64,000 bases of DNA from NCBI GenBank assembly GCA_964418485.1, contig CAYQMH010000001.1, forward strand, positions 29,237 to 93,236, in the 5' to 3' direction. Both the position numbers and the translations under genes were made by a program. The DNA is from an uncultured bacterium (GTDB taxonomy: Bacteria > Hydrothermota > UBA3072). The notes beneath the pieces were generated by a model, which searched no databases, was not told the origin of the DNA, and was given only the letters and a program-made list of their open reading frames with translations. Below, in pieces: positions 18,056-64,000 of the stretch (position 1 is the first letter of the stretch; every line of letters begins with the position of its first letter).

Positions 18056-18257
18056 AACGAACCTCCTTAACTGTTTATATTAAACAAATATAATTAAGAA
18101 GACATAGATGTCAAGGCAAACGTGTGTATTTCTAAATTTTAATTGACTGCCCTCCCAAAATTTTTTCGACAACACATTGAACCTTATTTGTTACAAGCAT
18201 TATAAAAGTTTTTTACGTGATATTACTGTTCGCCAGTATTTGTAGAGTCAGAGGGAT

Positions 18258-18462
18258 TACTGTTCGAGAAAGACGTGGTCAATTTCCAAAAGTAGAGGAA
18301 ATTGCCACTCGGCTCTCGGGCTTGTCCCGTGGAATAGAAAAACTATTCGTGAGGTAAGCTATTCCACGGGATGAACTCCTTTTGAAATGCAAGCATTTCA
18401 AAAGACCATGCCCGCTCACCCTCCGAGACGCTTTCCTGGACGGCAATCCCTCTGATTCTCGC
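18258..18462. repeat. Single copies of repeat units A (ctgttcgagaaagacgtggtcaatttcc) and B (ccatgcccgctc...cgagac...tcc) also found in tandem at 28018-28440
   Basis: There is a direct sequence match to the 28.0-28.4 kb array. The region also contains palindromes cccgtggaatag...ctattccacggg and ttttgaaatgcaagcatttcaaaa. Confidence 0.6.
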
Positions 18463-18600
18463 CGACTTAATTAATAAAAAAAATGGGGGGCAGGCAAATA
18501 AATTTTAAGTCTTGACAAGCTCGGGTTGATGTCTACACTTTATAATAGTTAAAGAAAGATTATTTTCGTTGCTTGTGCTTCGGATTTTAAAGGAGTGAAA

Positions 18601-20304
18601 ATGAAAGATATTTCAATTGTTTTGTGCGGTGAAGCCGGTCAGGGTATTCAAACTGTAGAGAAGATACTCGTTTCTGTACTTAAACGTTCAGGTTATTTTG
18701 TTTTTGCCGCGAGAGAGTTTATGTCCAGAATAAGAGGAGGAAGTAACTCTACCGAGATTAGAGTATCCGATAAGCCCGTTAATTCCTTTGTTGAAAAAAT
18801 AGATGTTTTGATTCCGCTGGACGGGAAAGCGGTCGACCATGTAAAGTGGAGAATAGGCGAGAATACGATAATACTCGGTAAAAAGGAATTTATACAAGGT
18901 AAATCTGGAAAGACATTTGAGGTTCCTTTTATCGAGTTGGCAAAAGAAGCAGGTAATAAGCTTTACGCGAATACCGTCACGGTGGGACTTCTTTCCGGTA
19001 TGCTCAGCGTAGATTTCTCGCATACGAAAGATTTTATAAGCGATTTTTTCAAGAAAAAGGGCAAGGAAATCATTAAGGGGAATGTCGAAGCTGCTAAAAA
19101 AGGCTATGAAATAGCAGAAAAACTGGTTAAAGAGAATAAGATTGACTTCAAGATAAAAAAGAATGAAAAGGCAAAGGATAATTCGCTTGTAAGCGGTACC
19201 GATCTGGTCTCCTTAGGGGCAATAGCTGGGGGGTGCAATTTTATTTCTTCCTATCCGATGTCTCCTTCGACCGGAGTCCTCACCTTTCTTTCATCCAAGC
19301 AGGAAGAGTTTGGGATAATAGCCGAACAGGCGGAAAGCGAGATATCCGCTATTAATATGGTGCTGGGAGCAAGTTACGCGGGAGCAAGAGGAATGGTAAC
19401 TACCTCAGGAGGCGGTTTTGCTTTGATGGTCGAGGGATTAAGTCTTGCCGGGATACTTGAAACTCCGGTAGTGATACATCTTGCGCAGAGACCGGGTCCG
19501 GCGACCGGTCTTCCTACGAGGAGTGAACAGGGTGATTTGCTTTTTGCCCTTTTTTCCGGGCATGGAGAATTTCCGAGGATAATTTTTGCTCCCGGCAAAA
19601 CGGAAGACATTTTTAATCTCAGCAGGATAGCTTTTGACCTGGCGGATAAGTTTCAAGTTCCGGTTATTATAATGACCGACCAGTATCTCCTTGATTCTTC
19701 TTTTTTAACTCCTTCGATCGATGTATCGAAGTATAAGAATAAAAAATACATAGTTAAAACGTATAAAGGTTATAAACGTTATAAGTTAACAAAGAACGGA
19801 ATAAGCCCCAGAGGTATTCCGGGTTACGGTAGGGGATTAGTGGTTGTGGATAGCGACGAGCACGACGAAGAAGGACATATAACCGAAGACCTCGATTTTA
19901 GAATAAAAATAGTGGATAAGAGACTTAAAAAAATGGATTTAATTAAGAAAGAGATAGAATCTCCGGAGTTAATCGGGAATAAAAATTATAAAACACTTGT
20001 GATAGGATGGGGCTCCACGTATTACGGAATAAGTGAAGCTTTAAAACGACTCGACGACAGAGATATCGCACTCCTGCATTACAGGCAGGTTTATCCCCTG
20101 CATCCTGATACTGAAAAATATCTTGCCAAGGCGAAAAAAACGATTATTGTCGAAAACAATGCCACCTCTCAGTTTGCCAGACTAATTAAGATGGAAACCG
20201 GAATACATATAGATAAATCGATATTAAAGTACAACGGGCTGCCTTTTGGTGTGGAGGAAATCGTGAAGGAAGTTCGAAAAATCGAGAAAAAGGAGGTTGG
20301 ATGA
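18601..20304 (+). CDS. 2-oxoacid:ferredoxin oxidoreductase, fused gamma-alpha subunit (two-subunit OFOR type)
   Basis: The N-terminus is gamma-domain-like ([15 protein letters not shown]), followed by an alpha domain ([16 protein letters not shown]). RBS aaaggag precedes the ATG at 18601. Confidence 0.85.
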
Positions 20305-24039: not shown

Positions 24040-24260
24040 TTAACCACAGAGGACACAGAGAAAAACAAACCCTCAGAGACCACAGAGAAAAACAACAAAT
24101 TATTTTTTTAATTAAAAACCCCAACCCCTCCAAAAAATAGAAACAACGAATTACACGAATAGCACGAATATCGAAAAGAAAAAAACTGATTTATTTGTGC
24201 AATTTGTTGTTAAAAAACGGGTGGTGCGGGTTCTTTATTTTTCCTATTCGACAATTTAAC
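24040..24260. repeat. Copy of dispersed composite intergenic repeat (CACAGAG heptads, C-rich complement of G tract, TTCGTG heptads)
   Basis: ccacagaggacacagagaaaaacaa...aaaccccaacccctcc...acgaattacacgaatagcacgaa is closely similar to 33228-33330. Its reverse complement is similar to 34490-34570. Confidence 0.65.
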
Positions 24261-28017: not shown

Positions 28018-28440
28018 GGATAACACTTTCGAAAAACCACAGTCAGTTTCCCCTGCGGTTTATTTCACAAGGAGTGCTGTTCGAGAAAGACGTGGTCAAT
28101 TTCCCCTGCGGTTTTATTCGCAAGGAGTACTGTTCGAGAAAACCAGAGTCAATTCTCCCAGCGAGAGAATTGCTCTTTACCTCTCGCTCTCACTCTTTTC
28201 GATTTTTGTAAAATCGAAAAACCGTGCCCGTTCGAGCTCCGAGATATTTTCCTGAACAGTACCCCTTACTCATTGGGCTGTTTTTGTCAAAAGTCCATGC
28301 CCGCTCGGTCTGCGAGACATTTTTTATGAAAGGCATCCCTGAACTTTTAATATTTTAAGAAAATAAAAAGGATAGTGTGCCCGCTCGGTCTGCGAGATAT
28401 TTTTCTTGAGCGGTATCCCTCACTCTTGGGTTTTAAACAA
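28018..28440. repeat. Tandem array: 3 copies of ~53-bp unit A then 3 copies of ~70-bp unit B
   Basis: Unit A is ctgttcgagaaa(g/a)ac..gtcaattt(c)ccc(tgcgg) x3 at about 28018-28180. Unit B is (c)gtgcccg(c/t)tcg...cgaga(t/c)attt...tccct x3 at about 28223-28440. Units are 70-85% identical, not CRISPR-like. Confidence 0.7.
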
Positions 28441-28530: not shown

Positions 28531-28586
28531 AGTTGGTTTTAGTGTTACCTTTTATTAAAAAGTAACACTTGTTAAAGGGGGTATTA

Positions 28587-30374
28587 ATGGTTTTGTTTTT
28601 GGTGTATATTTTGGCGATTGTTGATTCTTCGGAATCTGTTATGGATACTTCGTATACTAAAATGTATTTTTCAGAAGGTGTAGTAGTTACCGCGAGCAGA
28701 TACGAGGATGAGGTTTCCGATATCTCAACGTCTGTTTCCGTAATTACCGAAAAGGATATAAAATTTGTAAATTCTTATATAGCTCCCGATTTGCTTTCTG
28801 ATGTTCCCGGTGTGGAAGTTATGAAAACGGGCAATTTTGGAAGAGCTGATGTAGTAATAAGAGGGATCGGAAATAATGGGAGGAAGCTTGGTTTCCTTGT
28901 CGACGGAAGACCGGAAAAGATGGCTATATATGGTTGTGCGGTAACCCATACGTTTCCTCTTCATAATGTAAAAAAAATAGAGGTTGTTAAGGGTCCCCTT
29001 TCTTCTTTGTACGGTTCCGGGGCTATGGGGGGTGTTGTCAATATTTTAACCAGGCAGCCCAGCGGTGGTGATAAGCTGAATTTCGAGTGTGATTACGGAA
29101 GTTACAATACTTACAATTTAACTGGTTCTTTCGAGGAATCTTTCTCTAAAATAGATTTTTTGGGTACAGTGCAAAAGAATTCATCCGATGGCTACCAGGA
29201 GAATTCGGCTTCGAGTACTGATGCTTATCAGGGTAATTTAGTATACAATATTAATGGAGATTGGAGAATTGAAAATTATGCCAAGTACGTGGAGGCATAT
29301 AAGCAGGATCCGGCAACCGTAGGAGATACCTCTACTCCTGAAGGCTATCAGAACTACGAAAGAGGAGCTTTTGATGTTTCTGTGTATGGGTATATGGATA
29401 AAATCGATTTTCAAACAAAAATCTACAGGACTTATGGTTATCATGAATTTTCTGACGGATGGGAGTCGAGGGATAGAACCGACGGTTTGAGTCCTTCGGT
29501 TAGATTATCTTTTTTAAAAGGAAATGAGACTCAAGGCGGCTTTGAATTTTATAAACAATACGGGAACTGGATTTCTACTGATAGAAAGTGGGATAGGGCA
29601 GTATATGAAGGATTTATTCATACGCAGCAGAAAACCTCGTTTGTTAATCTTTCGGGAGGGGTAAGATATACTTATGTAAGCGATTCGGAAGGGGTTTTTT
29701 CATACGATGGTGGAATTGTTATTAAATATAATAACACAAGGATTCGGGGTAGAATAGGCAAAGGCTTTAGACTCCCTTCTTTTAATGATCTCTATCTTTT
29801 TTCTTCCTCGAATCCTTCTCTCGTGGCGGAAGAACTGTGGGATTACGAAATCGGTTTAAGGCAAAAATTGTCTGATATCATGGACCTCGATTTTGCTCTA
29901 TACCGTATGAATACAAACAATTTCATCAGATTCTCTCCTACAAGTGGTCAATTTGAAAATATAGATACATTGATTGAGAAAGGGCTGGAAACTTCTATCG
30001 GTATATATCCCGTTGATTGGTTGAAGCTTAAAGTATTTTATTCTTATATCGACAGGGAGGATAGAACGCAAGGCGTTCCCGGTCAGAAGTTCAGCGGAAG
30101 TATTACTTTCGAGAGGGATATTTTAGAAGCAAGGTTGAGCGGAAGATATTTGACCGATTATTACGCTGCTGACAATCATTTAGAAGAAATCCCTTCCTAT
30201 TATGTTTTTGATTTCCGTTTAAATGTTAAACCTAAGGATTATGTGTCTTTGTCTTTAGGTATCGACAATATACTTGATGAGTACTATGAGCGGTATGTTG
30301 AAGTGCCTAATGCCACAGGTTTGTATAGCATGCCCGGTAGGACTTTTAAGATGGGAATTGCTCTGGAAAAATGA
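28587..30374 (+). CDS. TonB-dependent outer-membrane receptor (BtuB/CirA-like)
   Basis: A plug domain (VVTASRYEDEVSDISTSVSVITEKDI...VPGVEV...VVIRGIG) is followed by a ~500-aa beta-barrel region. RBS aagggggt precedes the ATG at 28587. Confidence 0.75.
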   Translation: MVLFLVYILAIVDSSESVMDTSYTKMYFSEGVVVTASRYEDEVSDISTSVSVITEKDIKFVNSYIAPDLLSDVPGVEVMKTGNFGRADVVIRGIGNNGRKLGFLVDGRPEKMAIYGCAVTHTFPLHNVKKIEVVKGPLSSLYGSGAMGGVVNILTRQPSGGDKLNFECDYGSYNTYNLTGSFEESFSKIDFLGTVQKNSSDGYQENSASSTDAYQGNLVYNINGDWRIENYAKYVEAYKQDPATVGDTSTPEGYQNYERGAFDVSVYGYMDKIDFQTKIYRTYGYHEFSDGWESRDRTDGLSPSVRLSFLKGNETQGGFEFYKQYGNWISTDRKWDRAVYEGFIHTQQKTSFVNLSGGVRYTYVSDSEGVFSYDGGIVIKYNNTRIRGRIGKGFRLPSFNDLYLFSSSNPSLVAEELWDYEIGLRQKLSDIMDLDFALYRMNTNNFIRFSPTSGQFENIDTLIEKGLETSIGIYPVDWLKLKVFYSYIDREDRTQGVPGQKFSGSITFERDILEARLSGRYLTDYYAADNHLEEIPSYYVFDFRLNVKPKDYVSLSLGIDNILDEYYERYVEVPNATGLYSMPGRTFKMGIALEK

Positions 30375-33224: not shown

Positions 33225-33465
33225 CACGAAGACACTAAGACACGAAGAAAAAACAACAAAATTAGTATTGTTGATTAAACCCCTCAACCCCACCAAAGAA
33301 TAGAAACAACGAATCACACGAATAGCGCAAATTTCTTTTAATTTAACTCGAAACACGAAACCCAAAACTCGAAACTTTATAATTTCACACAAAGTCACAA
33401 AGGACACAAAGTTTTTATTTATTTTTTTTGACTAGTGACCAGTGACTGGTGACTGATGACTACTT
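33225..33465. repeat. Copy of composite repeat (CACGAAG/CACAAAG heptads + C-rich tract) plus GTGACCAGTGACTGGTGAC motif
   Basis: gccacgaagacactaagacacgaag...aacccctcaaccccacc...cacacgaatagcgcaaat...cacaaagtcacaaaggacacaaag...gactagtgaccagtgactggtgactgatgact. Confidence 0.6.
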
Positions 33466-34299: not shown

Positions 34300-34640
34300 A
34301 ATGAATTCATTCTCTTAAGTCAATGGTATTTTTGGCTACGAATAGCCACGAAGGCACTAAGATACAAAGAAAGAAACAACAAGAAAATATTATTTTTTAT
34401 AATTTCCACACCCATCCCAAAAGAGAGTAACAACAAATAGCACAAATTACACAAATGTATTGATAATGAGCATTTTTTATATAAGAATGAATCTTTTTCG
34501 TTTTATTCGTGCTATTCGTGTAATTCGTTGTTTCTATTTTGGGGAAGGGTTGAGGGTTTTAATCGGAAATATAAATTTTGTTGTTTTTCTTTGCGTTCTT
34601 TGTGGGCTTTGTGGTTCAATGATTTTTTTATATTGCTTGA
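34300..34640. repeat. Two adjacent copies of composite repeat
   Basis: The first copy is 34325-34440 (cacgaaggcactaagatacaaag...cccatcccaaaag...). The second is 34490-34625 (ttcgtgctattcgtgtaattcgttg...ggggaagggttgagggttttaa...ctttgtgggctttgtgg). Confidence 0.65.
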
Positions 34641-34720: not shown

Positions 34721-35395
34721 ATGATTGATAAAGAGAAAGAGTTAGCAGGGGCGGCTGTTTCGGATTTCTTATCCGATGGCATGATTTTAGGTCTTGGTAC
34801 GGGTTCAACATTTTATTACGCTATAAAAAAGATAGGTGAGATGGTCAAAGAAGGTTTGAAAATAAAAGCAGTTTCCACTTCATCTTCCACGGATAAATTA
34901 GCGGAGTCTTTGAATATTCCTCTTTTGTCTATCGATGATGTCGAGGAAATCGATTTGACCATAGACGGCGCCGATGAGGTTGATCCTTTTTTCAACGGAA
35001 TAAAGGGAGGAGGGGGGGCTTTATTGTTCGAAAAAGTAGTGGCGAAATCTTCCAAGAAAAATCTATGGGTTGTTAATGCCGCAAAAATGGTTGATAAATT
35101 GGGCGCTTTTCCTTTACCTATCGAAGTTGTTCCTTACGCTTTTGGTAACGTCTTTAAGAAACTCGAAGCCAGAGGATATAATCCCAAGATTAGAATGAAG
35201 GAAGGGGAAAAATATCTCACAGATAGCGGTAATCATATAATAGATGCGGGTTTGGGAGCAATCGAAGATGCTTACAAATTGGAAATCGAATTAAACATGA
35301 TTCCCGGTGTCGTCGAAAACGGCCTATTCTTAGATGTTGCAGATATCGTTATTGTGGGAAAAGGGGATGTAGTGGAAATTATTCGAAAAGAATAA
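34721..35395 (+). CDS. rpiA: Ribose-5-phosphate isomerase A
   Basis: It has LGLGTGST...IDGADEVD...GKGGAL-like motifs (GIKGGGGALLFEK). The 224-aa length is typical. Confidence 0.9.
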   Translation: MIDKEKELAGAAVSDFLSDGMILGLGTGSTFYYAIKKIGEMVKEGLKIKAVSTSSSTDKLAESLNIPLLSIDDVEEIDLTIDGADEVDPFFNGIKGGGGALLFEKVVAKSSKKNLWVVNAAKMVDKLGAFPLPIEVVPYAFGNVFKKLEARGYNPKIRMKEGEKYLTDSGNHIIDAGLGAIEDAYKLEIELNMIPGVVENGLFLDVADIVIVGKGDVVEIIRKE

Positions 35396-35399
35396 TTTA

Positions 35400-35660
35400 G
35401 TTGAATCGTTAAATTGTTGAATAGTTAAAACAAACGAAATTTTTTATTCGTGTTATTTGTACTATTTGTTGTTCCTCATAATTTTGGGGTTATGGGTTTT
35501 TAAAAACGATAATTAAAATGGGTTGTGGGATGTGGACTTTGTGTTCTTTGTGGTTCAATTATAATTTGTTTTTTCGAGGTTGGGTGTTTTAAACAACGAA
35601 ACATCTTTTTTTGTTTTTTTTCTCTGTGTCTCTGTATGAGATATTGGTTTTTGTTTTCGA
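35400..35660. repeat. Copy of composite repeat (TTCGTG heptads, GGGGTTATGGGTTTTTAAAA, CTTTGTG / CTCTGTG heptads)
   Basis: ttattcgtgttatttgtactatttgttg...ggggttatgggtttttaaaaacg...gaggttgggtgttttaaacaacg...ctctgtgtctctgt. Confidence 0.6.
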
Positions 35661-35915
35661 CTAGAGACTAATGACAGGTGGGCGTGTTGCCCAAAACCAA
35701 TAGAATAAAATAACACAGTTCACATTGTTATTGCGAACTCTTCTTCACGCCTTTCCACCGTGACGCAATCTCCACGTATAGCTTGCAATTAAGCCCTTTA
35801 ATTTTATCACAAGAGATTACTTCGCGAAAGTCGAGCAAGAGGACAAATTCGCAAAGACATTACTTTGGATAGCGAAAAGCCTTTCGGCAACACGCCCAGG
35901 TGACTAATGACTATT
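35661..35915. other. ~255-bp GC-richer element bounded by imperfect terminal inverted repeats (aggtgggcgtgttgcc / ggcaacacgcccaggt) and 10-bp direct repeat gactaatgac
   Basis: The element is directly readable. The interior (35695-35880) has no ORF and a higher GC content than its surroundings. It may be a MITE-like insertion or a structured RNA. Confidence 0.4.
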
Positions 35916-35951
35916 TTGAACCTTCAAGGTTCAAAATCTACCATTGACATT
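35912..35951 (+). promoter_or_regulatory. 19-bp perfect palindrome TTGAACCTTCAAGGTTCAA followed by TTGACA -35 box, upstream of nfnAB
   Basis: The palindrome at 35912-35934 is followed by ttgaca at about 35946 and a tatatt-like -10 about 16 nt later. It is a candidate operator (Rex-like redox regulator?). Confidence 0.4.
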
Positions 35952-36051
35952 TTTATTTAATATTGTATATTTAAAATCTTAAAAAACTTTTATATCCCGT
36001 AATAACAAAATAATAAAGGAATATAAAGATAAGCGATTATAGGAGTTATGC

Positions 36052-36888
36052 ATGTATAAGATATTAAAGAAAGAAAAAATTGGGCCGAATTTAAATAAAT
36101 TCGTAATAGAAGCGCCGCTTGTACCAAGAAATTACCAGCCGGGTCAGTTTGTTATATTAAAGGTAAATGAGGTAGGTGAGCGAATTCCTATTACAATCGC
36201 AGAAGCGGATAAGGATAAAGGAACAATTACAGTATTCGTTCAGGAAGTGGGTAAGACTACTTATAAACTGGGAGAATTGAAGGCTGGAGATTCTATCTCG
36301 GATGTGGTCGGTCCACTCGGCCATCCGGCTAAAATAGACAAAGTTGGAACTGTCGTAACAATAGGCGGAGGAGTGGGTACTGCCATTGTTTATCCGGAAA
36401 CGAAAGCGTTCAAAGAAGCAGGGAATTATGTTATTTCCATAATAGGTTTCAGAAATAAAGAGCATGTCATATTAGAAGAAGAAATGAGAAAATATTCTGA
36501 TGAGCTTTATGTCCTGACCGACGACGGTTCTTACGGAAAAAAAGGATTTACAACCGATGAATTACAGGAGCTTGAAAGTGCAGGAAGAAAGATGGATCTT
36601 GTAATAGCTATTGGTCCCGCAATAATGATGAAGAAAATCTCGGAAATGACAAAAGGATATAATGTTAAAACGATTGTTTCTCTTAATTCTACAATGATGG
36701 ATGCCACCGGTATGTGTGGGGGTTGCAGGGTCGAAGTTGACGGGGAAACTAAGTTTGCATGTGTTGACGGGCCGGAATTCGATGGCCATAAAGTAAATTT
36801 CGATTTACTTATAAAACGCCTTTCTACTTACGAAAAACAGGAAAAAGAAGCTCTTGACAGGTATAAAGATTGTAAAATCGGAAAGTAA
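36052..36888 (+). CDS. nfnA: NfnA / sulfide dehydrogenase beta subunit (FAD + [2Fe-2S] ferredoxin-NADP reductase-like small subunit)
   Basis: The 278-aa ORF has an FNR-like fold with a C-terminal Cys cluster (GMCGGCRVEVDGETKFACVDGPEF). It is immediately followed by the GltD-like subunit. Confidence 0.8.
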   Translation: MYKILKKEKIGPNLNKFVIEAPLVPRNYQPGQFVILKVNEVGERIPITIAEADKDKGTITVFVQEVGKTTYKLGELKAGDSISDVVGPLGHPAKIDKVGTVVTIGGGVGTAIVYPETKAFKEAGNYVISIIGFRNKEHVILEEEMRKYSDELYVLTDDGSYGKKGFTTDELQELESAGRKMDLVIAIGPAIMMKKISEMTKGYNVKTIVSLNSTMMDATGMCGGCRVEVDGETKFACVDGPEFDGHKVNFDLLIKRLSTYEKQEKEALDRYKDCKIGK

Positions 36889-38295
<1,407 letters not shown>

Positions 38296-50261: not shown

Positions 50262-50586
50262 ATTAAAAAACATTAAACACAGAGGACACAAAGAAATAAT
50301 TGTGTTAAAAAAGAAAAAAACACTGAGACCACAGAGAAAAAAAGAAATAAAAAATCTATGTTCTCTGTGGTGAAATATTATGGTGGGGTGTTGTGTGAGC
50401 TCTGTGCTCTCTGTATTTTGATTTGGGTGAGGAGTGGTGGGTTAAACAAAATAAAACTCTGTGTTCTCTGTGGTAAAATATTATGGTGGGGGGTTGGGTG
50501 GGCTCTGTGCTCTCCGTGTTTTCGTCGGGGTGGTGTGTGTTTTGGAAAAACAAAACAAAAATCTCTGTGTGCTCTGTGGTAAAAAA
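50262..50586. repeat. Largest composite-repeat array: ~3 tandem ~90-bp units (CTCTGTG(T)TCTCTGTGGTAAAATATTATGGTGGGGGGTTGGGTGGG...)
   Basis: Units at about 50340-50420, 50420-50500 and 50500-50586 are 80-90% identical to each other and to 61795-61890. Confidence 0.7.
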
Positions 50587-51179: not shown

Positions 51180-52601
51180 TCACTGAAGAATGATAGCTTT
51201 CTTCCTGTATATATTATCTCCTATCTCTACTCTGACAAAGTAAATGCCGTTCTTTCCATTCCACTGGAGATTATAGCTGCCGGAAGGTCTGACTTCATTC
51301 ATTATCTTTTCCATTCTCTGCCCAAGAATGTTAAATATTTCCACCTTTACTCTTTTTTCTTCCAGAAGAGAAAAATTAATATTAATTCCGGAATTTATGT
51401 TAATAAGGGAAACTCCTTCCTCTAAAATTTCATTTTCATCATCTTCTGAACTACCGGTATATTTGATGATATAAAGACCATCGTCCCTATCCGCAACGTA
51501 GGCGAGGCTGTCGACAACGTAGGCACCGGAGGCCTCACTCCCCGTATCATAATACCCAATCTCGACCGGGCTTGTCGGGTCACTCACGTCAATGATACGT
51601 AAACCATTGAAACCGGCTGCAACGTAGGCGAGGCTGTCGACAACATAAACACCTGAGGCTTCAATCTCTGTATCATAGATACCAATCCAAAACGGGCTTG
51701 TTGGGTCACTCACGTCTATGATATGTAGACCATTGGAAGAAGCTGCAACGTAGGCGAGACTGTCGACAACGTAAACACCCTTGGCCCAAATTCCCGGATC
51801 ATAGTACCCAATTTCAACCGGATTTGAAGGGTCACTCACGTTTATGATACGTAGACCATCTGAGTTATCCGCAACGTAGGCGAGGCTGTCGACAACGTAA
51901 ACATCTTGGGCCCAACTCTCCGTATCATAATACCCAATCTCAACGGGGCTTGTCGGGTCACTTACGTCTATGATACGCAGACCATCTAAACCGGCTGCAA
52001 CGTAGGCGAGGCTGTCGATAACGTAAACGTCGGAGGTGGTGCTTCCCGTATAATAGTGGCTAATCTCAATTGGGCTTGTAGGGTCACTTACGTCTATGAT
52101 ATAAAGACCATCCCGGAAATCAGCAACATAGGCGAGACTGTCGACAGCGTAAACACCGTAGGACCAATACCCAATATCATAGTAGCCAATCTCGACCGGA
52201 CTTGTCGGATTACTCACGTCAATGATACGTAGACCATCCCAGTAACTCGCAACATAGGCGAGGCTGTCGATGACGTAGATATCCATAACTTGAGATGGAC
52301 ATCTAATTTTACCAATAGTGGTGGGATTTGAAGGGTTAGTTACGTTAAGTATCCTCAGATAGCCTCCATCTCCTATGAACACAAGACTGTCAATTGTAAA
52401 TACAGCTTCAGATGGACCGCTGAACCATCCACCTACAAGAGTACAGTCCAATGAATCACCCCTGAAGTTTTCACGGGTCCAATTCTCATTCACAGGTCTT
52501 CTATCTAACTCAATCTTTCTGTGAGATGTTTGGGCAAATAAACTGACAGTCCCGAAAAATATTAATAATACAACAATTGTATTTTGAATTAAGCGTCTCA
52601 T
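51180..52601 (-). CDS. LVIVD-repeat beta-propeller protein with T9SS C-terminal sorting domain
   Basis: It has a signal peptide and about 9 tandem ~40-aa repeats (DSLAYVA...DGLRIIDVSDPTSPVEIGYYDT). The C-terminal tail is Por-secretion-like (...GIYFVRVEIGDNIYRKKAIILQ). Confidence 0.75.
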   Translation of the reverse strand: MRRLIQNTIVVLLIFFGTVSLFAQTSHRKIELDRRPVNENWTRENFRGDSLDCTLVGGWFSGPSEAVFTIDSLVFIGDGGYLRILNVTNPSNPTTIGKIRCPSQVMDIYVIDSLAYVASYWDGLRIIDVSNPTSPVEIGYYDIGYWSYGVYAVDSLAYVADFRDGLYIIDVSDPTSPIEISHYYTGSTTSDVYVIDSLAYVAAGLDGLRIIDVSDPTSPVEIGYYDTESWAQDVYVVDSLAYVADNSDGLRIINVSDPSNPVEIGYYDPGIWAKGVYVVDSLAYVAASSNGLHIIDVSDPTSPFWIGIYDTEIEASGVYVVDSLAYVAAGFNGLRIIDVSDPTSPVEIGYYDTGSEASGAYVVDSLAYVADRDDGLYIIKYTGSSEDDENEILEEGVSLININSGININFSLLEEKRVKVEIFNILGQRMEKIMNEVRPSGSYNLQWNGKNGIYFVRVEIGDNIYRKKAIILQ

Positions 52602-55704: not shown

Positions 55705-56060
55705 ATTAACAGCGTCAGATATTGAAATGTGAAAAGGAAACGTAGTCTCTAGTCTTCAGTCACCAGTCATTAGTCAAAGAAAACAAACAAAAAATCTTGT
55801 GATAATCTGTGTCAACAGGGTCAGACATTGAAATGTGAAAAGCTTTTGTGGATTCTTCGAATCCAAGTTAAATGGTTGAATAAAAAAACAGTTAAATTGT
55901 AACAACAAAATTACAATAACTACATGTCCTACATGTGAAAAAATTGGGTAGGGTTGGGTAAAATAACCTAATATTTCTTTTTTTCTCCGTGTTTCTGTGT
56001 CTCCGTGTGATGATTTTTTTGGTGGTGGGTGGTGGTGGCTTGACAAGCATTGAAAATGTA
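55705..56060. repeat. Intergenic repeat block: 29-bp direct repeat aacag(c/g)gtcaga(t/c)attgaaatgtgaaaag x2, GTCACCAGTCATTAGTC motif, composite-repeat fragment with GGTGGTGGCTTGACA
   Basis: The direct-repeat copies are at 55708-55736 and 55814-55842. ctccgtgtttctgtgtctccgtgtg...ggtgggtggtggtggcTTGACAagc lies at about 55985-56046. Confidence 0.6.
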
Positions 56061-59639: not shown

Positions 59640-59800
59640 CACATCTCACCAAAACCAAATGAACCACAAAGACCGCAGAGAACACAAAGTAAAACAACAA
59701 AAATCATTTTTTTGTTTAGCCCCTCCCCTAAATAGAAATAACGAATTACACAAATAGCACAAATTGTTTTAAAAACAACACCGCAAAGAACGCAGATTTT
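59640..59800. repeat. Copy of composite repeat (CACAAAG/CAGAGAACACAAAG heptads, CCCTCCCC tract, CACAAATAGCACAAA heptads)
   Basis: aaccacaaagaccgcagagaacacaaag...gcccctcccctaaatagaaataacgaattacacaaatagcacaaattg. Confidence 0.6.
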
Positions 59801-61734: not shown

Positions 61735-61930
61735 TATGGTTTCGGGTTTTGAGTTTCGTGTTTCGAGTTGAAAAATAAACAAAAAGGAGGGGTTGTGGGG
61801 TGTAGCTCTGTGCTCTCTGTATTTAAATTGGGGTAATGGGGTTGTGAGTAAACAAAATAAAAATCTCTGTGTCCTCTGTGGTTAATTGTTTTTGTTCTTT
61901 GTGCCTTTGTGTCTTTGTGGTTAAATACAC
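61735..61930. repeat. Copy of composite repeat, ~85% identical over ~85 bp to 50400-50485
   Basis: tagctctgtgctctctgtatttaaattggggtaatggggttgtgagtaaacaaaataaaaatctctgtgtcctctgtggttaa...ctttgtgcctttgtgtctttgtgg. Confidence 0.7.
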
Positions 61931-63764: not shown

Positions 63765-64000
63765 ATTACTAACCACAGAGACCACAGAGATTTTATTTTG
63801 TTAATACCTCCCGACTACCTCCCCGATTAAAACACGGAGAGCACAGAGTTTACACAACCCCACACTATAGTATTTTATCACAAAGAACACAGAGTTTTCA
63901 TTTCTTTTTTTTCTCTTTGTTTTATTAATTGAGTGCGGTGATTGGGTTTTAAACAACAAAATTTATTTTTTCTCTGTGGTCTCTGTGTGTTTGTTCTTTT
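63765..64000. repeat. Copy of composite repeat (reverse-orientation CACAGAG heptads, then forward GGTGATTGGGTTTTAAACAACAAAA...CTCTGTGGTCTCTGTG)
   Basis: aaccacagagaccacagagattttattttgtt...cacggagagcacagag...gagtgcggtgattgggttttaaacaacaaaatttattttttctctgtggtctctgtgtg. Confidence 0.65.

Follow-up and report, generated by a model that had tools for sequence, protein, structure and literature searches.

Between a gene for ribose-5-phosphate isomerase (rpiA, 34721-35395) and an nfnA/nfnB-like gene pair (36052-38295) lies a spacer of 656 bp, which raises the question of what kind of element lies upstream of nfnAB. The spacer belongs to a stretch of 64,000 nucleotides from an uncultured bacterium, analysed here at its full length and called the window; the closest named homologues of its NfnA come from candidate division WOR-3. 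An earlier note, made from the sequence alone, had described an element of about 255 bp and offered two readings, a non-autonomous transposable element (MITE) or a structured RNA of about 220 nt closed by a stem of its two ends. The first of these is borne out by a target-site duplication, by copies elsewhere and by empty sites in relatives. With a probability of roughly 0.9, window positions 35680-35897 are a MITE, a non-coding DNA transposon of 218 bp that ends in inverted repeats of 16 bp and is inserted in a heptad array. The characters by which such elements are recognized are present, namely a short unit devoid of a transposase ORF, terminal inverted repeats, a flanking duplication, multiple copies and empty sites. 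The features of the locus are listed below; loci fetched for comparison are cited throughout by their L numbers.

35659-35675, + strand: units GACTAGA GACTAAT GAC of the target heptad array, on the left of the insertion (comparison with orthologous uninterrupted arrays)
35676-35679, no strand: target-site duplication AGGT, left copy, formed by the four variable positions of a heptad
35680-35695, + strand: GGGCGTGTTGCCCAAA, the left terminal inverted repeat (in the end logo, 12 nt are invariant and [C/G]AAA follows)
35696-35881, no strand: non-coding interior with nested inverted blocks (copy alignment, ORF check, profile match)
35882-35897, - strand: right terminal inverted repeat, TTTCGGCAACACGCCC when read on the + strand (inverted-repeat search and end logo)
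35898-35901, no strand: target-site duplication AGGT, right copy, abutting the right terminal repeat
35902-35911, + strand: units GACTAAT GAC of the target heptad array, on the right of the insertion (GACNNNN heptad search)
35913-35937, no strand: perfect 12-1-12 palindrome ATTTTGAACCTTCAAGGTTCAAAAT, candidate nfnAB operator
35944-35971, + strand: sigma-70-like nfnA promoter, TTGACA-16-TATATT (11/12; promoter scan)

The inverted-repeat search returned two arms of 17 nt (35679-35695 and 35882-35898) that are 94% complementary and contain a perfect 12-bp core, GGGCGTGTTGCC on one side and GGCAACACGCCC on the other. The terminal inverted repeats themselves are 16 bp long and read GGGCGTGTTGCC[C/G]AAA. 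The invariance of the 12-bp core across copies is a product of the search design; the [C/G]AAA extension beyond it is kept in 70 ends. The inverted ends described in the earlier note are real, with the left arm misplaced by 1 nt and the right arm by about 6 nt, and the unit measures 218 bp rather than about 255 bp. Within the interior, 35727-35738 (GTTATTGCGAAC) pairs with 35848-35858 (TTCGCAAAGAC), and 35760-35773 (GTGACGCAATCTCC) pairs with 35813-35825 (GAGATTACTTCGC). The reverse strand of the element matches the HMM of its own family (nhmmer, E = 4e-18). Because it matches its own reverse complement, the element can be described as a nest of inverted blocks sharing a GWNWTTGC-like core with the terminal repeat. 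No ORF of more than 36 aa lies inside it, the longest having 36 aa, in line with the ORF-free interior described before. The elevated GC content reported for the interior holds against the flanking spacer (0.43 for the element, 0.30 on the left and 0.24 on the right) but not against the window as a whole, whose mean is 0.39; the element is therefore GC-rich solely relative to AT-rich intergenic DNA. A profile search with nhmmer found no further copy within the 64-kb window, where the element is single.

The earlier note had taken the flanking 10-bp direct repeat, GACTAATGAC at 35666-35675 and 35902-35911, for a putative target-site duplication, a reading that did not survive. When the element and one AGGT are deleted in silico, the flanks join into GACTAGA GACTAAT GACAGGT GACTAAT GAC, a regular GACNNNN array (the reconstructed empty allele of this site is GACTAGAGACTAATGACAGGTGACTAATGAC). 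Since this deletion restores regular heptads, the GACTAATGAC pair represents neighbouring units of the target array and no duplication; the true duplication is the 4-bp AGGT that abuts the terminal repeats. Alignment of the copies gave the same length, with the four bases just outside both ends identical on each side. Among 62 distinct insertion sites, 40 have the four flanking bases duplicated without a mismatch and 6 more agree at three of four positions, and no other duplication length fits across the 62 sites. The 10-bp reading was rejected, as the flanks match across sites at length 4 only. The heptads were also considered as excision footprints, composed of a 4-bp duplication plus 3 nt of transposon end, and this was rejected because the conserved GAC and GTT triplets mismatch the GGG/CCC termini.

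It had been cautioned at the outset that gactaatgac might be a module of a general repeat family, and this proved correct. The GACNNNN heptad family (GACNNNNGACNNNNGAC) gave 7 matches against 0.09 expected, and element-free GACNNNN arrays adjoin T-runs in the window at 33430-33460 (+) and 55745-55775 (-). Heptads of a second word, GTTTCGR, occur in the window at 61739-61769 and 33345-33376, and the same word flanks copies in Acidobacteriota. The preference for such arrays is measurable across the reconstructed empty sites, whose self-identity at a 7-nt shift is 0.447 compared with 0.264 in controls and exceeds 0.6 at 14 of 62 sites, compared with 0.2% of control windows. Copies of the WOR-3 subfamily are inserted at most sites in the phase GAC|NNNN|GAC, in GACNNNN/GTCNNNN arrays and in both orientations relative to the array. 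In Acidobacteriota, the element enters GTTTCGG/GTTTCGA arrays and in most cases duplicates TCGG, CCGA or TCGA. A few copies lie at a different, palindromic target, GTCAAA..TTGA..TTTGAC.

Orthologous rpiA-nfnA spacers were compared in relatives with an NfnA identity of 93-95%. In three of them, independent of one another, an uninterrupted heptad array occupies the position of the element, followed directly downstream by the same palindrome and TTGACA promoter. These empty sites, of the kind that the earlier note had proposed to look for, read as follows.

L140/L141 (WOR-3 assembly GCA_016930175.1): GACTCAC GACTGAA GACTGGC GGCTGAG GACTA
L143/L145: GACTCCC GACTGAT GACTTGC GACTCAG GACTC
L153: GACTTGC GACTCGT GACTTC

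Other relatives (L146, L147-149, L150) have no array at all in the orthologous spacer. From the uninterrupted arrays it follows that the array is older than the insertion. In the window, the array has a T-run on one side and the candidate operator and the promoter of nfnAB on the other, and the placement of the element just upstream of these signals was confirmed, its end lying 15 bp from the palindrome and 46 bp from the -35 hexamer of the nfnA promoter, a strong sigma-70-like one. The palindrome is conserved as TTTTGAAC-N7-GTTCAAAA in L142, L143 and L153 and is degenerate in L140. Given that the nfnAB palindrome and promoter were left intact, the insertion is probably neutral or nearly so. 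The peculiar arrangement upstream of nfnAB is thereby explained as a recent, probably neutral transposon insertion, with the apparent direct repeats belonging to the target array.

The recent date of the movement comes from copies elsewhere. The WOR-3-type subfamily comprises 28 copies with 13 distinct sequences at about 19 insertion sites. Copies 99-100% identical to the one in the window were found at no fewer than five other loci in metagenomes of the same project, each in a GACNNNN/GTCNNNN array with its own duplication (CAGT in L041, ATTA in L051, ACAG in L058/L065/L076 and GCAA in L068), so the search for copies outside the window was successful. The contigs that bear these near-identical copies have a WOR-3-like composition, with tetranucleotide correlations to the window of r = 0.84-0.985; multi-copy status in the exact genome of the window rests on unbinned contigs from the same sample. 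In the MAG CAZKVT01, three identical copies occupy three loci with the duplications TAAA (L021), TTTG (L023) and ATTG (L028). All 19 of the WOR-3 copies examined are intergenic, and their neighbouring genes are arranged in tandem, convergently or divergently. These data show that the element moved recently within this WOR-3 lineage. A non-coding unit, inverted ends, a 4-bp duplication, recent spread and absence from orthologous sites together identify it as a non-autonomous DNA transposon.

The copies also leave traces in the assemblies. In the assemblies of sample 3300031554, contigs break off within the element, L038 ending at window position 35867 and L001 starting at 35772. In contig L063 (428-646), the left flank of the L043 site is fused to the right flank of the L021 site, and at L078 (4954-5171) the 4-mers flanking the element do not match. 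Such flanks point to copies that have recombined with one another or else to a chimeric assembly spanning the repeat. That the element breaks metagenome assemblies and can yield chimeric joins matters for the binning of WOR-3 and Acidobacteriota genomes.

The ends of the element extend well beyond this lineage. A search for the paired 12-mers separated by 180-210 nt found 35 stretches in a species-representative genome collection (596 Gb) and 46 in metagenomes, many of them from the JGI project that contains the genes of the window, giving 81 in total; by our own calculation, less than one such pair would be expected by chance in 596 Gb. Most of the 35 genome stretches belong to Acidobacteriota MAGs, two of which hold about 10 copies each, and others to Verrucomicrobiota, Planctomycetota and Thermoanaerobaculia. 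As a control, the 16-nt end alone was searched in viral contigs and gave 55 lone matches in coding sequences, with no partner end. The terminal repeats are common to the elements, about 205-235 bp in size, of Acidobacteriota, Verrucomicrobiota, Planctomycetota, WOR-3 and others, together with 4-bp duplications and a 7-nt-periodic target bias. Several of the MAG copies in the genome scan have interiors resembling that of the window element. Between phyla, no homology of the interiors was detectable, the identity of 42-48% in either orientation being background. Size variants of 179-466 bp with the same ends and exact 4-bp duplications (L029 3857-4281, L034 4147-4612, L044 4326-4504 and L084 116-457) imply that the family is not confined to the 205-235-bp class imposed by the search pattern. 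The family is thereby defined by exact ends across at least four phyla, a 4-bp duplication and an unusual preference for 7-bp tandem arrays, which it enters in phase.

The kind of element is well known, and the family itself appears to be undescribed. Searches by end sequence, by heptad words and for MITEs in these phyla turned up no published description of a GGGCGTGTTGCC-ended family, a result of incomplete coverage that counts as absence of evidence only; literature matches to the end sequence or heptad words were unrelated primers and similar items.

These numbers also bear on whether there is a discrete element here at all. The intergenic DNA of the window is rich in short word arrays and dispersed repeats of about 100 nt, and GACTAATGAC is one such module, so that the repeats could in principle be modules of the short intergenic word mosaic of this genome or arise by chance. 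Against this, the whole 218 bp travel together, sharply bounded and with a duplication of their own, the unit is absent from the orthologous arrays, and the paired ends, expected less than once, were found in 81 stretches. The copies that are identical as whole blocks already refute such a dissolution of the element into background repeats, which we regard as scarcely credible.

The second of the original readings makes the segment a stand-alone, non-mobile gene for a structured non-coding RNA, with its ends pairing as the closing stem. The perfect 12-bp stem fits this, as does the fold of the whole element, which reaches -63.6 and -77.1 kcal/mol on the two strands with significant z-scores of -3.6 and -4.1. 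Folded alone, the interior does little better than shuffled sequences (z = -2.1 and -1.4), which places most of the stability of the whole element in the 12-bp terminal stem. The Rfam check came back empty, with 0 matches in the whole window at the gathering threshold (Rfam 15); a permissive local scan (E <= 10) returned a chance match to a snoRNA alone (17.6 bits, E = 6.4). WOR-3 copies that are just 67% identical overall keep invariant blocks, GTCATTGCGAAC with CTCGCAAAGAC and GCAATCTC with GAGATTGC. The predicted structure, itself obtained from the alignment of these copies, has 43 pairs, of which 30 are free of variation and 3 carry a compensatory change. This compensatory count was reached by 173 of 500 shuffles, and the percentage paired and the covariation score by 1 of 500, again with the structure taken from the alignment under evaluation. 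With blocks that are invariant instead of covarying, weak covariation overall, and interiors unrelated between phyla under identical ends, and contradicted by the 4-bp duplications, the many loci and the empty sites, a stand-alone RNA gene is very improbable, and the closing-stem interpretation, to which the placement of copies in either orientation and in every gene context also speaks, has no positive support. We infer that the invariant internal blocks are candidate protein-binding sites and not evidence for RNA.

The internal conservation exceeds what a purely passive MITE would need, which may point to additional binding sites or a further function. Host co-option of such elements is known from the Correia elements in Neisseria, and here the MITE could form a hairpin with arms of about 110 bp in rpiA read-through RNA, or give rise to a small RNA, and act as insulator or stabiliser, offer a target to RNase III or regulate nfnAB. 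The strong fold of the whole element, the blocks kept among diverged copies, a terminator-like hairpin with a T-run on the minus strand inside the element (35739-35717) and the proximity to the nfnA -35 hexamer are compatible with this possibility. However, the stability lies mostly in the terminal stem, compensatory changes are no more frequent than in shuffles, no promoter-like site was found inside the element, the copies lie in either orientation and beside genes of every arrangement, and relatives lack the element at this locus. Co-option at this site therefore seems unlikely to us, though less so than a free-standing RNA gene.

For the transposon itself, the ends and the duplication suggest how it may have moved. 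A DDE-type transposase supplied in trans would bind the terminal repeats, and perhaps also the nested GWNWTTGC-like blocks. Staggered cuts 4 bp apart would be made in the target between the conserved triplets of the array, and gap repair would then duplicate the four bases, here AGGT in one heptad. A palindromic target consensus is usual for DDE transposases, and the direct-repeat target found here, GAC-N4-GAC, departs from it, a point against this reading. Repeats of about 16 bp starting with GG, together with a 4-bp duplication, are shared with DDE insertion sequences of the IS5 group and IS701 type and their MITE derivatives, to which the element may be related; an enzyme of this kind would fit. 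In contrast to IS5, the element lacks the typical YTAR target, and no transposase gene with these ends was found in the fetched loci. We know of no parent insertion sequence for it. No autonomous partner with the same ends was found in viral contigs, in plasmids (BLAST) or in the fetched loci, which amount to about 756 kb and in which pairs with as many as 3 mismatches and a 4-bp duplication were included. Requiring end pairs with a 4-bp duplication returned only the size variants of 179-466 bp.

End pairs spaced 0.4-4 kb apart in the fetched loci were inspected and discarded as chance matches inside ordinary genes, namely a porin/hydrolase (L003), an oxidoreductase (L025), ribosomal proteins (L054), a thioredoxin-like protein (L006) and a GNAT-like protein (window 53057).

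A different mode of transfer would apply if the element were of REPIN or PATE type, a pair of REP-like hairpins in inverted orientation that is mobilised by a RAYT or by a single-strand transposase of the IS200/IS605 type. REPINs, too, are inverted doublets that form hairpins and are scattered through intergenic DNA; the element has the shape of a hairpin and occurs in multiple intergenic copies, and each of its ends can form a small GGGC-GTGTT-GCCC hairpin. Y1 transposases insert beside a fixed tetranucleotide and generate no duplication. Here, by contrast, variable 4-mers (AGGT, CAGT, ATTA, ACAG, GCAA, TAAA, ATTG and others) are duplicated exactly at the 40 sites mentioned above. As REPIN/IS200-type elements make no duplication, the element does not belong with them. 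REPINs also measure about 70-110 nt, whereas the element, at about 218 bp, is around twice the usual size, and a non-systematic look at the fetched loci revealed no RAYT gene. We therefore give this alternative very little weight.

Among known small elements, the closest in general form are the Correia elements or NEMIS of Neisseria, RUP of S. pneumoniae and ERIC/IRU. These are likewise non-coding, 100-250 bp long, with terminal inverted repeats and a short duplication, and likewise intergenic, multi-copy, folded into a long hairpin and often situated beside promoters. The end sequence of the present element is unrelated to theirs, and its duplication consists of four variable bp, whereas that of Correia elements is TA. 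In further contrast to all three, its ends occur in four or more phyla with unrelated interiors, and its insertions are phased into 7-bp tandem arrays. Insertion strongly biased toward pre-existing repeats and accompanied by a short duplication is also known for IS1397 and ISKpn1, which enter palindromic REP/BIME units, and for the rice element Micron, which enters (TA)n microsatellites. The target of the present element differs in being a heptad array entered between conserved triplets, GAC|NNNN|GAC, with the word GACNNNN in WOR-3 and GTTTCGR in Acidobacteriota.

The comparison with Rfam families produced one further match outside the window. RF01687 (Acido-Lenti-1, 46 nt) exceeds the threshold at sites 14-18 nt inward from the ends of elements of a sister subfamily that has the same terminal repeats and resides on Acidobacteriota-type contigs. 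The matches are as follows.

L003: 4288-4333
L015: 5389-5434 and 5526-5571 (both ends)
L062: 23-68
L048: 3904-3950
L019: 329-376

The near-end position of 14-18 nt applies to L003, L015, L062 and L048, and the L019 match lies inside the element. Acido-Lenti-1 covers the subterminal module only and not the whole element, and neither the window copy nor the WOR-3 subfamily matches it. Because the matches fall inside the ends of the sister subfamily, some Acido-Lenti-1 instances may represent a transposon module. The consequence for Rfam is that at least some entries in this family appear to be transposon parts rather than RNA genes.

A broader proposal, which we offer tentatively and consider possible rather than probable, would unite these observations. 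All GGGCGTGTTGCC-ended elements would belong to one horizontally spread transposon system that uses heptad microsatellites as landing pads, with a phase of insertion that duplicates the four variable bases. The arrays would be functional protein-binding platforms, and the Acido-Lenti-1 "RNA" would be the subterminal module of the transposon. Since the array word varies by lineage and the ends are identical, targeting under this proposal would proceed through the structure of the array or an array-bound host protein and not through a fixed sequence.

Several other features of the window were recorded apart from the MITE. A region of about 220 nt at 18240-18470 (+), upstream of the ORF 18595-20304, has a closing stem (CAGAGGGATT...AATCCCTCTG) and internal hairpins, and pieces of it recur as 53-54-nt repeats at 28028-28420 (+), upstream of the ORF 28569-30374. 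No Rfam family matched these regions even at E <= 1, and the one at 18240-18470 is a candidate cis-regulatory RNA. The intergenic DNA of the window is a mosaic of word arrays, among them CTCTGTG, CTTTGTG, ATTCGTG, CACGAAGA and GGGTTGGG, which combine into dispersed repeats roughly 100 nt long as well as a 103-nt tandem (24069-24172, 33232-33335, 34356-34459, 34505-34604 in inverted orientation and 59651-59764; 50341-50546 and 63817-63911). The same word modules fill the orthologous spacers of relatives, for example L147. Finally, a 126-nt tandem repeat with about 6 copies at 75-81% identity occupies 51493-52277 within the minus-strand ORF 51180-52601 and represents a repetitive protein-coding region.
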